Shown one piece after another: positions 1 through 32,000 of a stretch of DNA of 32,000 nucleotides. Position 1 is the stretch's first letter; every line of letters starts with the position of its first letter. The DNA is from Candidatus Saccharimonadota bacterium (lineage in GTDB: Archaea > Nanohalarchaeota > Nanosalinia > Nanosalinales > Nanosalinaceae): contig NZ_CP180230.1 of assembly GCF_047555085.1 (NCBI RefSeq), positions 120,001-152,000 on the forward strand, read 5' to 3'. A model generated the notes under the pieces. It did not search any database. It saw only the letters and a list, made by a program, of their open reading frames with translations, and had not been told where the DNA came from. The position numbers and the translations under genes were made by a program.

Positions 1-80
1 TCAAGGTAGAAAGACTGTAGCACGCCGCAAAATTTTTCATTCTCAAGATTTTATATTCGAGGATTCACTAAGAATTCTGT

Positions 81-851
81 ATGGGTATCCTTCCTTCGGT
101 TTTCGGAAGTTCGGGAAATTCAGGAAACAATGACGTTGAGAAGAAGTCAAGGACAAACTCAACTCCAGGTACTGTAGATGGTTCTAAATCAAATGAACTG
201 AGAAGTATAATGAGTGGAGACAACATCGATATGACGGATCGAGATGTAAAGCTGAGTGCCGATCATACTTCAAGCCACCTCAACGTTGCAAAGTCCCCGC
301 TACTGGAAAGGATGAATCACGCAGTCGGTAAAGTGGAAAGAGAAAAAAGCACTATTGTTAACAAACTTCCAGCGTCAGAAGCCGATAAAATGGGTAGAGA
401 ACTACAGGCAGCTGAAGACGACTCCGCTCAAATCGTTAAAGCAGACATCAATCCACATGAAAAAATGGTTGTCAGCGGAGAAGTCCTCAATGAGGCCTCT
501 GAAGCTATAAAAGAAAGAGTCAAGAAGATGTTCGAGCTAAAGGCTGAAATCGGAGATAGAGATGAGGATGAAATAAGAGAAGATATGAAAGAACTCTGGA
601 GAGATGTTTACAGGCTTGTAGATCAAAATATGCAGGCCTACTACTTTATACATGATAAAGCAGCCAATGAATCACGCGAAGTACAGGCCTTCACTGTAGA
701 TGCTGCAAATGTTTTCAGGAATACTGTTAAAGTCTGGAGCAAGCTTAACAGAGATGCTGCTGGAGAGATTCAGTCCCTGAAGAAGTGGAGGATGAAGAGA
801 GTCAACTTTGATTCCGGGAACGATACGATTTTCCAGCAGTTTTTCGCCTGA
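81..851 (+). CDS. Hypothetical protein with an S/G/N-rich N-terminus followed by a charged helical region
   Basis: A 256-aa ORF, the only long ORF at this locus. A TATA-like TTTTATATT at 49-57 lies about 28 nt upstream of the ATG, suggesting a leaderless-type arrangement. No family recognised. Confidence 0.6.
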   Translation: MGILPSVFGSSGNSGNNDVEKKSRTNSTPGTVDGSKSNELRSIMSGDNIDMTDRDVKLSADHTSSHLNVAKSPLLERMNHAVGKVEREKSTIVNKLPASEADKMGRELQAAEDDSAQIVKADINPHEKMVVSGEVLNEASEAIKERVKKMFELKAEIGDRDEDEIREDMKELWRDVYRLVDQNMQAYYFIHDKAANESREVQAFTVDAANVFRNTVKVWSKLNRDAAGEIQSLKKWRMKRVNFDSGNDTIFQQFFA

Positions 852-895
852 AAGAGGCCTCAAGTTAAGAAGATTCACTGGAAAATCTTATTTTC

Positions 896-1294
896 ATGCA
901 GGATGCCGCGGTGCTGACTCATCCACACGATACATATGGAGTTGATACAGGGAAGATACAGAGATTTCTTGAGAACTCTGATTTTGACGCCGTGTACTAC
1001 ATATCAGACAACGAAGGATTTCTGCAGGAGCCCTGGAGAACCGGCGCTATGGAGACAGAACGAGAATGCCTTTTGCCGACAGGATTCGAAAAAGGATTTT
1101 ACGAGAGAGGCCTTGAAGAAACAGGATCCGGAGAACTTGAATCTCACGAAGTAGATTTTCTGGATGAACGATACGATGAAGTCTACGTTCTCGGTGCCAG
1201 AAGAGGAATCTGCGTGGAAAACACTTATGCCAGTCTGGAAGAAGGTTTTGAAGGAGAGATCAGGAGGATCGACGAGATGATCTTCCCGAAGTAA
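896..1294 (+). CDS. Hypothetical acidic protein
   Basis: A 132-aa ORF with acidic composition like its neighbours. The overlapping 936..1154 ORF is in another frame and has basic junk composition. No family recognised. Confidence 0.55.
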   Translation: MQDAAVLTHPHDTYGVDTGKIQRFLENSDFDAVYYISDNEGFLQEPWRTGAMETERECLLPTGFEKGFYERGLEETGSGELESHEVDFLDERYDEVYVLGARRGICVENTYASLEEGFEGEIRRIDEMIFPK

Positions 1295-1331
1295 TTTGAT
1301 TCTTAAAACTCACCTATAAAATCATCTATAC

Positions 1332-1376
1332 GAAACCGGGTTTCCGGTTTCCTGATTCGGGAACTCTCTGAGTTCC
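1332..1376 (+). other. Two tandem perfect hairpins between the upstream CDS and tRNA-Phe
   Basis: The first is GAAACCGG-gttt-CCGGTTTC (1332-1351) and the second is GGAACTC-tct-GAGTTCC (1360-1376). A TATA-like CTATAAAAT lies at 1314-1322. They could be a terminator or a tRNA leader structure. Confidence 0.35.
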
Positions 1377-1382
1377 ATTCAA

Positions 1383-29439: not shown

Positions 29440-29498
29440 AGTTCCAGATTTGGATCAGGCCGTATATTATTTACGTAGGGAACTCGAATACCTCAGTT

Positions 29499-29783
29499 AT
29501 GCATGGAGAGGCCTCGCGGAAGGTGCCTGACGGCAAGCTTGTGAATGTCGAACTTGATTACTCGGATGTTCTGGAAGACGTGGAGATCAGAGGTGATTTT
29601 TTCCTGGAGCCGCCGAAGGCGCTTGAGGCCCTGGAGTCTGCTCTTGAGGGTGTCTCATCTGATGCTTCACGTCAGGAGCTTGTCTCTGCTATGCAGTCTG
29701 TCAGAGCTGATCTGATCGGTTTCTCCCGTGAGGATATTGCAGATACTGTTTTACAGGCCATGGGAAGAGGTGACGAAGTATGA
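29499..29783 (+). CDS. lplB: Lipoate-protein ligase accessory subunit (stand-alone LplA C-terminal domain)
   Basis: A 94-aa protein. KVPDGKLVNVELDYSD..LEDVEIRGDFFLEPPKALEALESAL is the Lip_prot_lig_C pattern. It has an ATGA overlap with lplA. Confidence 0.8.
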   Translation: MHGEASRKVPDGKLVNVELDYSDVLEDVEIRGDFFLEPPKALEALESALEGVSSDASRQELVSAMQSVRADLIGFSREDIADTVLQAMGRGDEV

Positions 29784-30526
29784 AATGGCGTATAATCAAT
29801 GAAGGAGAGTACAGCGAGGCTATGCATCATGCTATCGATGAAGTTCTCGCGGATAAGATGGAAAAAGGCGAGATGAGGCCTACGCTTCGTTTCTGGTACC
29901 GGAAAAATCCTTCTGTACCGTTCGGACGTTTCCAGAGCTTTGAAGACGAAGTCGAAGTCGATTACGCAGAGGAAAACGGCATAGAGGTTGTGAGACGTAT
30001 CACTGGCGGAGGAGCGATGTTCGCGGAGCCGGGAAACGTCATAACGTACTCGATATATATTCCAAAGGATCAGGTTCCTGAAGATGTTGAACAGAGTTAC
30101 AGGGAGCTGGATAATTTTGCTGTAGAGGCCTTACAGGATCTTGGTGTGGAGGCGAGTTACAGGCCTCTGAACGATATTGAACATGAGGACGGCAAGCTTG
30201 GGGGTGCTGCGCAGTTGAGGAAGAATGATTCTGTGCTGCATCATACTACGATGAGTTATGATCTTGATACGGAGGAGATGCTCCGTGTACTCAGGATTGG
30301 AAAGGAGAAGGTTTCAGATAAAGCAGTGAAATCTGCCGAGAAACGTGTATCACGTATCACAGATCACATCGATAGTTCAAGGGAGGAAGTTATCGAGAAG
30401 ATTATTGAGAAGTTTGTCGAAGGGAAAGAGTACGAGGAAGGAGGCCTTTCGGAGGATGAGTTAAGCAGGGCGGAGAAACTGGCTGAGGAAAAGTTTTGCT
30501 CCAGTGATTGGAACAGGAAACTCTAG
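29780..30526 (+). CDS. lplA: Lipoate-protein ligase A, catalytic domain
   Basis: It has RRITGGGAMFAEPGNVITYS and the catalytic-Lys block DGKLGGAAQ (BPL/LplA/LipB fold). The size is 248 aa. Confidence 0.85.
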   Translation: MKWRIINEGEYSEAMHHAIDEVLADKMEKGEMRPTLRFWYRKNPSVPFGRFQSFEDEVEVDYAEENGIEVVRRITGGGAMFAEPGNVITYSIYIPKDQVPEDVEQSYRELDNFAVEALQDLGVEASYRPLNDIEHEDGKLGGAAQLRKNDSVLHHTTMSYDLDTEEMLRVLRIGKEKVSDKAVKSAEKRVSRITDHIDSSREEVIEKIIEKFVEGKEYEEGGLSEDELSRAEKLAEEKFCSSDWNRKL

Positions 30527-30580
30527 GTTATACTCTGGTTTCCGGTTATCATTTAACACTCATTTACATCTTTCCAATGT

Positions 30581-31483
30581 ATGAGACCGAAGGTAAAAGG
30601 ACTTCACCACATCACAATCATCTGCGGAGAACCCGGTAAAAACGCTGATTTCTACATCGATGTACTGGGCATGCGGATGGTGAAAAAAACCGTTAACCAC
30701 GACGCACCGGAACTGTACCATTTATTCTACGGAGATGCAGAGGGAACACCGGGATCCAGCGTAACATTCTTCCCGATGATGGCGGACAACCAGGGACAGC
30801 CAGGAACAGGCCAGGTGACGGAACTAGGCCTCAGAATCCCGGAAAACTCGCTGAGTTACTGGAAAAACCGTCTACATGAAAACGATGTAACTTACGGAGT
30901 CGAAAATTTGAGAGGCCTGGAAACTTTAACTTTTGAAGATCCTGACGGCCTTGACCTCAGATTGATACCGGGCAACGACGGAGATTTCACGCCGTGGAGC
31001 GAAAGCACAGTGCCGGAGGACAAACAGATAAGAGGCATGAAACAGGTAAAAATTGAGGCCTCTCAGCACGATCTTTCAAGACAGCTGCTGGAGTTGATGG
31101 ATCTTGAGAAAGTCGGAGACAGTTTCTTCCGTGCCAGCGACGGCTCCGGTGTACACCTTGTCGAAAGCAATCAACGTGGAAAGATGGGGCGTGGATCCGT
31201 CCATCACATCGCTTTCAAAGTTGAAGACGAGGAGATGCAGGAGGCCTGGAGAGAGGAACTGCAGAACATGGGCATGATGCCTTCGCCGGTGACTGACAGA
31301 AGATACTTCAAATCGTTATACTTCAGGGAGCCTTCCGGAGTGCTGTACGAGTTCGCGACGATGGGGCCTGGATACACGGCTGATGAGGAACTTGAAGAGC
31401 TTGGAGAAAATCTTGTGCTTCCCGACGAACTTGAAGGCAGGAGAAGGGAGATAGAAAACTCTCTACCGGAGTTCGACAGGTGA
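30581..31483 (+). CDS. VOC-superfamily ring-cleaving dioxygenase (MhqE/MhqO/YfiE-like)
   Basis: The N-terminal block GLHHITIICGEPGKNADFYIDVLGMRMVKKTVNHDAPELYHLFYGD is present, with a second VOC repeat GSVHHIAFKVEDEE. The size is 300 aa. Confidence 0.85.
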   Translation: MRPKVKGLHHITIICGEPGKNADFYIDVLGMRMVKKTVNHDAPELYHLFYGDAEGTPGSSVTFFPMMADNQGQPGTGQVTELGLRIPENSLSYWKNRLHENDVTYGVENLRGLETLTFEDPDGLDLRLIPGNDGDFTPWSESTVPEDKQIRGMKQVKIEASQHDLSRQLLELMDLEKVGDSFFRASDGSGVHLVESNQRGKMGRGSVHHIAFKVEDEEMQEAWREELQNMGMMPSPVTDRRYFKSLYFREPSGVLYEFATMGPGYTADEELEELGENLVLPDELEGRRREIENSLPEFDR

Positions 31484-31489
31484 AAAACT

Positions 31490-32000
31490 TTGGTACACTC
31501 AGACAGGCCTGTAATCGAGAAAGGAACTATGGAATCCGGAAAAGCTGTGATAATGATACACGGGAGAGGAGCCACTGCACAGAGCATCCTCAACCTTTCC
31601 GAAAAACTTCCAGAGGCCTACTACATGGCACCGCAGGCCTCGAAAAGGGAGTGGTATCCGAGAAGTTTTCTGGAAAAGAGGGAGAAAAATCAGCCGCATC
31701 TCGACTCCGCACTGAAGAAGATCGATGAACTTGTAGAAGAGGCCTCTGAGAAAGTAGGACGGGAAAATGTTTTCCTACTCGGATTCTCGCAGGGAGCATG
31801 TCTCGCATCAGAGTACGCTGCGTCTAATCCCGGAAGATTCGGAGGTGTGATACTTTTCAGCGGAGGCCTGATAGGAGATAAAGTTGAAAGTTTTGAAGGC
31901 GACATGCAGGGGACGAAAGTTTTCATAGGATGCAGCGACAACGATCCGCATATCCCGCTGGAAAGGGTCAACGAGACAGAGGAAGTTTTCCAGCAGCTTG
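31490..32000 (+). CDS. Phospholipase/carboxylesterase-family hydrolase (MhqD-like), 3'-truncated by the window end
   Basis: The hand-translated frame (TTG 31490 or ATG 31529) reads ...GKAVIMIHGRGATAQSILNLSEKL...VFLLGFSQGACLASEYAA...GCSDNDPHIPLE. GFSQGA is the nucleophile elbow. This frame is not in the ORF track because it runs off the window. Confidence 0.8.
   Translation, partial: MVHSDRPVIEKGTMESGKAVIMIHGRGATAQSILNLSEKLPEAYYMAPQASKREWYPRSFLEKREKNQPHLDSALKKIDELVEEASEKVGRENVFLLGFSQGACLASEYAASNPGRFGGVILFSGGLIGDKVESFEGDMQGTKVFIGCSDNDPHIPLERVNETEEVFQQL

Follow-up and report, generated by a model that had tools for sequence, protein, structure and literature searches.

Why should one six-base word, AGGCCT, recur about every two hundred bases in the DNA of a nanohaloarchaeon? 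The stretch in question (contig NZ_CP180230.1, positions 120,001 to 152,000; 32,000 bases, hereafter the window) encodes an MrpA identical to a protein of Candidatus Nanosalina sp. VS9-1 (Nanohaloarchaeota, DPANN). An initial annotation, made from its letters alone, had described AGGCCT as a highly iterated palindrome shaped by selection or biased repair at the level of DNA. By exact count the window holds 138 copies, one per 232 bp, or one per 204 bp outside the ribosomal RNA (rRNA) genes. The results fit best with a highly iterated palindrome (HIP) in Archaea, for which we found no earlier archaeal description, and the word very probably owes its abundance to a lineage-specific, protein-mediated fixation bias that acts on the DNA itself.

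AGGCCT ranks first among the hexamers of the window, and the runner-up words that do not overlap it reach ~44 copies. Dinucleotide-preserving shuffles (n=100) gave 8.4 ± 3.3 copies with a maximum of 17, and the observed/expected ratio (O/E) was 20, 16, 6.5 and 2.5 under Markov models of order 0, 1, 2 and 3, respectively. Because the G+C content is 46.8%, one copy is expected per ~4-4.7 kb, not per 5-6 kb as first estimated, and the excess is 16-20-fold where well over 20-fold had been claimed. The regional counts given with that estimate were exact (24 in 1-5000, 27 in 5001-10000, 30 in the mrp operon and none in 9400-12400), and the GGCC tetramers of 1-5000, put at about 24 of roughly 38 inside AGGCCT, proved to be 24 of 39. 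Over the whole window GGCC occurs 224 times: 138 times in the A_T context, and 86 times in others, where ~88 are expected. None of the remaining palindromic hexamers exceeds an O/E of 2.7. As in known HIPs, a short palindrome thus lies more than one order of magnitude above composition-aware expectation, and codon-aware shuffles leave a 6-14-fold excess. The initial annotation had held that a Markov ratio near 1 would refute the excess. Such a ratio does appear at the maximal order (1.1 at order 4), but it is an artefact, uninformative and circular because AGGCC, GGCCT and GGCC consist mostly of AGGCCT itself.

The excess is not tied to protein coding. The 29 coding regions of the window (greedy open reading frame (ORF) calls, the larger ones checked against Pfam) contain 113 copies, as compared to 19 ± 3.8 when synonymous codons are shuffled within genes, a procedure that preserves both the protein and the already inflated codon usage, and 7.9 when codon order is shuffled. 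All three codon phases are used (25 AGG-CCT, 37 nAG-GCC-Tnn and 51 nnA-GGC-CTn), gene orientation divides the coding copies 54 to 59, and their distribution along genes is even. Density per kb is 4.99 in coding DNA, 4.68 in intergenic DNA and 0.68 in rRNA genes. The intergenic DNA (4.2 kb, 41% G+C) carries 19 copies where 0.6-0.9 are expected, an O/E of 20-30. Presence in every phase, on both strands and between genes is therefore as initially described, and the peptides offered as examples of the three phases (FRPV, SGLI and EASK) are all found in MrpA. The rRNA genes hold 3 copies, the number first reported, against 1.2 expected; they lack the enrichment seen elsewhere, as expected under strong structural constraint.

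To see how far the trait extends, DNA of relatives was taken around MrpA or PolB homologues of nanohaloarchaea (L209 and L211 through the PolB of L081; Table 1). Enrichment varies between lineages: VS9-1, L081 and L085 have it, L082, L083, L086, L208, L211 and L001 do not (O/E about 0.6-2), and L084, L207 and L209 are intermediate or mosaic. L081 and L085 are enriched in DNA that is not syntenic with the window, and the excess is thus not confined to this locus. At 79 control loci from haloarchaea, methanogens and bacteria, obtained by searching genome contigs with MrpA-alignment patterns that proved too general and returned one nanohaloarchaeon, the O/E of AGGCCT was at most 1.7. For 132 other loci, each 10 kb or longer, the O/E of the top-ranking palindromic hexamer had a median value of 3.9 and a 95th percentile of 8.7, and only L081 and L085 exceeded 11 for any palindromic hexamer. 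AGGCCT enrichment is a property of one sublineage and is unusual in degree. JGI sources contained no MrpA above 70% identity to that of VS9-1. In L209 (1-16200), whose PolB is 69% identical to that of L081, AGGCCT is the top palindrome with 12 copies in 22 kb; this lineage may have a weaker drive, or may be gaining or losing the trait.

Two relatives are divided within a single locus. L084 (9455-14472) and L207 (8627-15377) each contain an AGGCCT-rich mrp segment, with 16 and 13 copies in the operon, and in L207 copies also occur in the downstream DUF4382 and PAP2 genes. The upstream genes of both (glutamate dehydrogenase, M32 peptidase and short-chain dehydrogenase) have 0-1 copies. The mrp genes of both group with L081 (80-83% nucleotide identity; 78% to the window), whereas the glutamate dehydrogenase of L207 is 72.6% identical to that of the window, about the same as that of non-enriched L082 (71.5%), and L084 and L207 diverge as much from one another in their upstream genes as they do from L082 and L086. 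At sites where AGGCCT stands in both the window and L085, the L084 positions are 2-4 bases off the word and are therefore not products of recent decay; recent loss of the trait in L084 was rejected on this ground and on the discordant phylogeny of mrp and its flanking genes. Most simply read, genomes poor in AGGCCT received AGGCCT-rich segments by transfer, although chimeric metagenome contigs are possible, and picking these loci by MrpA similarity to VS9-1 favors the detection of transfers in this direction. AGGCCT density tracks the lineage in which a segment evolved, which points to a factor acting in trans that only some lineages possess.

The effect on coding sequence was followed in contexts that can accommodate the word, namely Arg-Pro, Lys, Gln or Glu followed by Ala and then Phe, Leu, Ser, Tyr, Cys or Trp, and x-Gly-Leu with an A-ending codon available for x. 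Window genes fill 113 of 149 such contexts (76%), or 25 of 29, 37 of 52 and 51 of 68 by class. In codon alignments of the mrp genes from the window and eight relatives, the A-GGC-CT of enriched genomes corresponds to synonymous AGGTCT, AGGACT, TGGTCT or GGGATT in the others, and these alignments show synonymous positions rewritten into the word. Filled mrp contexts number 29 of 43 in the window and 33 of 42 and 16 of 36 in the other two enriched lineages, as compared to 3 of 31, 1 of 28, 1 of 31 and 0 of 25 in non-enriched relatives. The glutamate dehydrogenase gene, which holds several copies in the window, has none in L084 (87% protein identity) or L082, one in L207 and four in L085. When all called genes are pooled, the three enriched genomes fill 235 of 349 contexts and the non-enriched ones 20 of 342. 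The resulting odds ratio of ~33 is close to the 20-30-fold intergenic excess, and this agreement bears out the central idea of the initial annotation, that the force acts on DNA and not on protein. The bias operates regardless of coding, at ~20-30-fold per position, fills two thirds to three quarters of available contexts and spares only the strongly constrained rRNA.

The contexts that could hold the word are also more frequent in enriched genomes (6.1 versus 3.5 per kb of coding DNA; 36-43 versus 25-31 in mrp orthologues), the density ratio of the window, L081 and L085 to L082, L083, L086 and L208 being 1.4-1.7. Moreover, at 12 of the 29 window mrp copies none of the outgroups has amino acids that could accommodate the word. 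The force therefore seems to have fixed amino-acid replacements too, which suggests that a process acting on DNA has also altered protein sequences. The enriched genomes are only 47-52% identical to one another at third codon positions and have 11-18 mrp copies in common (odds ratios 2-4, not significant by Fisher's test, 30-35 contexts), a sharing largely explained by independent saturation of shared contexts.

The words that stand in place of AGGCCT indicate what kind of process is at work. Among unfilled contexts the ratio of one-off to two-or-more-off words is 0.68 in enriched and 0.71 in non-enriched genomes, and because it is unchanged, every route to AGGCCT must be favored rather than one mutation type. 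Relative to baseline, the variants across the three enriched genomes stand at 1.08 for AGGTCT, 0.77 for AGGACT, 0.69 for AGGGCT and 0.41 for AGGCTT/AAGCCT (4 observations), with transversion variants at 0.55-0.77. A booster of a single mutation, like T:G repair, should empty the precursor state; this is not evident, and the pattern looks instead like a whole-word fixation bias, resembling an advantage of complete AGGCCT over all alternatives as read by a protein. Of the mechanisms first proposed, selection or biased repair on DNA, the action on DNA stands, while a simple C-to-T bias of the very-short-patch kind is not supported by the variant spectrum. One-off variants summed over the enriched genomes have an O/E of ~1.9 when the change is outer and 0.6-0.75 when it is central, against ~1 in controls, and this outer-enriched, central-depleted pattern, a mark of HIPs, is found only in enriched genomes. 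In these genomes alone, GGGCCT/AGGCCC, a single outer transition away, is 3-5-fold enriched, while GGGCCC is rare (2 copies, O/E 0.38). A dimeric protein that recognizes its two half-sites in a graded manner would leave such a combination.

The word itself is a bare hexamer. Positions beyond its six bases carry at most 0.2 bit each in the window, and uninformative flanks exclude a longer repeat or mobile element, as had been stated initially from the differing flanks of individual copies. The -1 and +1 bases are independent of each other (chi-square p = 0.83, 287 copies in three genomes), and an extended 8-bp palindrome was therefore rejected. At -1, G is mildly preferred and T avoided, as coding constraints (Glu codons, TAG stops) would lead one to expect. 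Spacing is compatible with random placement (coefficient of variation (CV) 0.93 in the window and 0.93-1.02 in enriched genomes), and regular spacing was rejected. Pairs closer than 30 bp show a mild deficit in the window (8 observed versus 17.7 expected), and 28% versus 8% of contexts, in a test of interference at unfilled contexts, had a neighbor within 30 bp; pooled over three genomes this difference was not significant (p = 0.09), and short-range interference between copies was rejected. Some full or near copies are adjacent (AGGCCTTTGGGCCT at 26177-26190, AGGCCTGAGGCCT at 7615-7627 and AGGCCTGAGGGCCT at 28292-28305) and, the word being palindromic, could pair as short AGGCC/GGCCT stems.

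The best-known system of this kind is HIP1 (GCGATCGC) of cyanobacteria, a G+C-rich short palindrome that is 15-300-fold over-represented (PMC4390886, PMC5861425). The analogy to HIP1, drawn in the initial annotation, holds on five features: both words are in large excess, occur in genes in all frames and between genes, belong to no longer repeat, are lineage-specific and missing in some relatives, and have one-off variants that fall preferentially at outer positions and are avoided centrally (the pattern of Elhai, PMC4390886). AGGCCT differs in being a hexamer of another sequence rather than an octamer, in belonging to Archaea, namely DPANN symbionts with ~1 Mb genomes, and in being denser (~4,300 per Mb, as compared to 300-2,700). 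HIP1 also has known methyltransferases (GATC, CGATCG), for which neither the window nor the relatives' loci yielded an AGGCCT counterpart. The nearest formal parallel is with the alternative cyanobacterial HIPs, such as rCCGGy of Oscillatoria PCC 10802 and GCsGC of Cyanothece PCC 7822, each of which co-occurs with a matching methyltransferase (PMC4390886, Elhai 2015). Like AGGCCT, they are 5- or 6-base palindromes of single lineages, replacing HIP1 at comparable or higher density; they differ from it in phylum and domain. Elhai proposed for HIP1 a methyl-directed mismatch-repair ratchet, and Xu et al. read it as selected chromosome architecture (PMC5861425, Xu 2018). These two roles and a third, a methylation-dependent signal for transformation or recombination, all apply to AGGCCT, and the present data do not separate them.

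Among mechanisms we tentatively place methyltransferase-linked, methyl-directed biased conversion first. Under this model, AGGCCT would be read by a dimeric, sequence-specific DNA protein of one Nanosalina-like sublineage of Nanohaloarchaeota, and, by analogy with cyanobacterial HIPs, this reader may be a StuI-type (AGGCCT) cytosine methyltransferase, acting as an orphan or within a restriction-modification system. Correction of mismatches in heteroduplexes, whether formed in replication or in recombination, would use the allele with the methylated word as template, such that mutations completing AGGCCT would tend to fixation and those breaking it to reversion. An enzyme system with this recognition word exists in Alcanivorax borkumensis SK2, where nearly all of 1,674 AGGCCT sites are methylated on both strands at the second C (AgGCcT) (PMC12128166). 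In the enriched lineages the word is hyper-abundant, and no enzyme for it was found in the window or the relatives' loci. Targets of active restriction systems are usually avoided (PMC4687349), and the 16-20-fold enrichment of AGGCCT is the reverse of the avoidance expected of an active type II target. In the literature searched, methylation data for nanohaloarchaea come from Ca. Nanohalococcus occultus only, a non-enriched species with the motif GDGCHC (PMC10266531).

Several observations weigh against conversion directed by methylation. Neither the window nor ~40 kb from the other enriched lineages encodes a DNA methyltransferase, a restriction enzyme or a mismatch nuclease. Pfam, NCBIfam and PADLOC scans of the window ORFs returned only a generic class-I S-adenosylmethionine (SAM) methyltransferase, with no DNA methyltransferase, restriction enzyme or Vsr, and Vsr-like and mismatch-repair genes were absent from the window as well as from the Pfam tables for loci of the relatives. 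The signature of C-to-T (T:G) correction is not evident in the variant spectrum, where the low value of AGGCTT/AAGCCT comes from those 4 observations. Sites are shared between enriched genomes no more than independent saturation predicts, and any other DNA-binding protein that reads the hexamer would leave the same footprint. Biased conversion nevertheless ranks above the two alternatives treated next, which rank equally, and these rank above very-short-patch repair.

The first alternative, possible though doubtful, is that AGGCCT is an exchange signal, read by a machinery of DNA uptake or recombination, such that alleles bearing it would be imported or recombined preferentially and the word would accumulate by molecular drive with no benefit per site. 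Uptake signal sequences (USS) of Pasteurellaceae such as Haemophilus and DNA uptake sequences (DUS) of Neisseria are over-represented genome-wide in coding and non-coding DNA, probably accumulate by molecular drive via biased uptake and recombination and mark 'self' DNA; HIP1 too has recently been read as an uptake or Chi-like word. A whole-word fixation bias with other words at baseline proportions fits this model as well as it fits methyl-directed repair, and the equal coding and non-coding densities, the mild deficit of close pairs and the AGGCCT-rich mrp segments of discordant phylogeny inside AGGCCT-poor L084 and L207 agree with it. Over-representation is a likeness to uptake sequences, and the mosaic loci speak directly for exchange of segments between lineages, unless their contigs are chimeric. 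However, known uptake sequences are asymmetric, non-palindromic and 9-12 bp long, at ~1 per kb, whereas AGGCCT is a strict palindromic hexamer without extension; such a word discriminates weakly, as foreign DNA has it about every 3-4 kb. Competence is, to our knowledge, not known in nanohaloarchaea, and no competence genes were seen in the limited DNA read. Spacing no more even than random, interference that is not significant when pooled and a set of mosaics whose mode of discovery is biased to imports from the enriched clade also count against it. In the case of HIP1, transformation rises as much as 100-fold with methylated copies (bioRxiv 10.1101/2024.09.10.611283), and a role as uptake sequence has been proposed (bioRxiv 10.64898/2026.06.24.733823). 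It is similarly doubtful, if conceivable, that AGGCCT marks DNA as 'self' when nanohaloarchaeal symbionts exchange it, as an uptake signal or a hotspot of recombination that is perhaps read only when methylated and was written by molecular drive. If so, it would be the first uptake-signal or HIP-type system in Archaea and would explain the AGGCCT-rich mrp segments inside AGGCCT-poor relatives.

Direct selection on each copy has an equally modest claim. Here AGGCCT would be the binding site of an abundant architectural or chromosome-maintenance protein acting in nucleoid structure, replication or segregation, a case that Xu et al. made for HIP1, which is reported to be selected and periodic (PMC5861425). 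The graded tolerance of half-sites, with GGGCCT enriched and GGGCCC not, suits protein binding, and the denser compatible contexts of enriched genomes mean that even protein sequence yielded. On the other hand, selection would have to be effective at ~4,500 separate sites in a symbiont with a small genome, close relatives are entirely without the word, and no significant site-specific conservation beyond saturation was found; nor is spacing regular at the scales visible in the window, which is too short for 10-40 kb periods.

Pure very-short-patch repair is improbable. In this scheme a methylated C deaminates to T and a context-reading T:G nuclease or glycosylase restores C:G, also converting AGGTCT or AGGCTT. 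Such repair is established in E. coli, where context-specific T:G correction makes a methyltransferase target (CCWGG) commoner and its T-variant (CTWGG) rarer, and Mig.Mth is an archaeal T:G glycosylase linked to a GGCC methylase. The x-Gly-Leu contexts of the window, with 51 AGGCCT and 1 AGGTCT, the ~2-fold depletion of central variants there and the low AGGCTT/AAGCCT would agree with it. But the E. coli effect is much below 20-fold, whereas AGGCCT is ~20-fold in excess with no clear selective depletion of its T-variant: across the enriched genomes T-variants are drained no more than transversions, and the transversion variant AGGGCT/AGCCCT is depleted equally.

Two further accounts can practically be discarded. 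A by-product of composition, codon usage or the amino-acid content of an acidic halophile proteome, for which the order-4 ratio and the commonness of GAG-GCC-TCn (Glu-Ala-Ser) and Gly-Leu might speak, was dismissed in view of the circularity of that null, the shuffles preserving protein and codon usage, the equally enriched intergenic DNA and the orthologues of related halophiles that have the same amino acids without the word. A longer dispersed repeat or miniature mobile element has nothing but the high copy number in its favor, and the mutually independent flanks, the in-frame copies at conserved amino-acid positions of orthologues and the lack of a conserved sequence beyond the core, of terminal repeats and of target duplications contradict it.

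Full-text literature searches returned no paper linking AGGCCT with nanohaloarchaea or DPANN, in keeping with the first impression that no archaeal equivalent had been described, and Elhai 2015, Xu 2018 and a 2026 HIP1 preprint (bioRxiv 10.64898/2026.06.24.733823) do not mention archaea. Three decades of work on HIPs, all in one phylum, have left their mechanism and function unsettled, and AGGCCT provides an independent case in another domain. It amounts to a natural comparative experiment with another word, ~1 Mb genomes and close relatives without the trait, in which the contrast in gene content between enriched and non-enriched nanohaloarchaea should point to the responsible enzyme. It is also a clear example of a DNA-level process that, in the reduced genome of a symbiont, overrides codon choice and seems to alter amino-acid sequences as well. 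In practice, AGGCCT density labels the lineage of origin of a segment and makes recombination visible among uncultured DPANN archaea; it also has a bearing on binning, and future genetic work may require DNA with StuI-type methylation.

Table 1. Features of the window and loci of relatives, with their AGGCCT content
Feature or locus	Coordinates	Strand	AGGCCT	Remarks
Intron-bearing tRNA, anticodon TCT (Arg), 119 nt	6748..6866	-	1, at 6793-6798	Rfam tRNA match; missed by ARAGORN
RNase P RNA	7157..7506	-	1, at 7351-7356	weak Rfam match
Back-to-back AGGCCT pair AGGCCTGAGGCCT	7615..7627		copies at 7615 and 7622	in none of the greedy ORFs
23S rRNA	8876..11827	-	2 (0.8 expected)	largely spared
tRNA-Ala(TGC)	12296-12369	opposite to rRNA genes		between 23S and 16S
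Unknown protein gene	12397-13302			between 23S and 16S
Class-I SAM methyltransferase gene	13424-14065			between 23S and 16S; generic
16S rRNA	14282..15755	-	1, at 14495	largely spared
Glutamate dehydrogenase gene	16630..17850	-	5
mrp (Na+/H+ antiporter) operon	20405..26136	+	30	mostly nnA-GGC-CTn at x-Gly-Leu
L081			67 in 22.4 kb, O/E 19	MrpA 84% identical; 41% G+C; flanks non-syntenic with window
L085			82 in 17.6 kb, O/E 25	MrpA 74% identical
L086			O/E 1.8	MrpA 72% identical
L082			O/E 1.1	MrpA 69% identical
L208			O/E 0.6	MrpA 66% identical
L083			O/E 1.0	Ca. Nanohalococcus occultus; MrpA 62%
L001			O/E 0.9	nanohaloarchaeon; MrpA 61%
L211			O/E 2.0	fetched through PolB
L209			O/E 4.0, diffuse	fetched through PolB

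AGGCCT was also met in unrelated DNA. Viral contigs scanned for clusters of three copies yielded chance matches, tandem repeats and unrelated elements, none similar to nanohaloarchaeal loci. Two related IMG/VR contigs of 36% G+C, L088 (191-3304) and L163 (387-3208), have an O/E of 15-32, with the copies clustered between small ORFs and mostly in the context aAGGCCTt; they are likely to be regulatory repeats in an unrelated virus, distinct from the phenomenon described here. A plasmid- or phage-like contig (L169, 1-10794; Rep3, ParA, PD-(D/E)XK nuclease, integrase and DnaB-primase) that shows no similarity to nanohaloarchaeal loci has dispersed copies at an O/E of 7.6.

Some RNA genes of the window deserve mention. 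The copy reported in the tRNA-Arg intron is present. The two back-to-back copies that had been placed in RNase P RNA lie outside the Rfam match, which holds a single copy. That match scores 36.8 bits (E = 1e-8) against the archaeal model, whose gathering score is 84; the RNA is divergent, and standard annotation would miss such a gene. The 23S and 16S rRNA genes are unlinked, being separated by other genes, and 5S rRNA was not found in the window. The 16S copy sits in a helix (14488-14509), GAGGCC-UGCAACUC-GGCCUC, at which many archaea, we presume, have GAGGGC...GCCCUC. If that form holds, the AGGCCT in 16S rRNA was created by a compensated base-pair swap.

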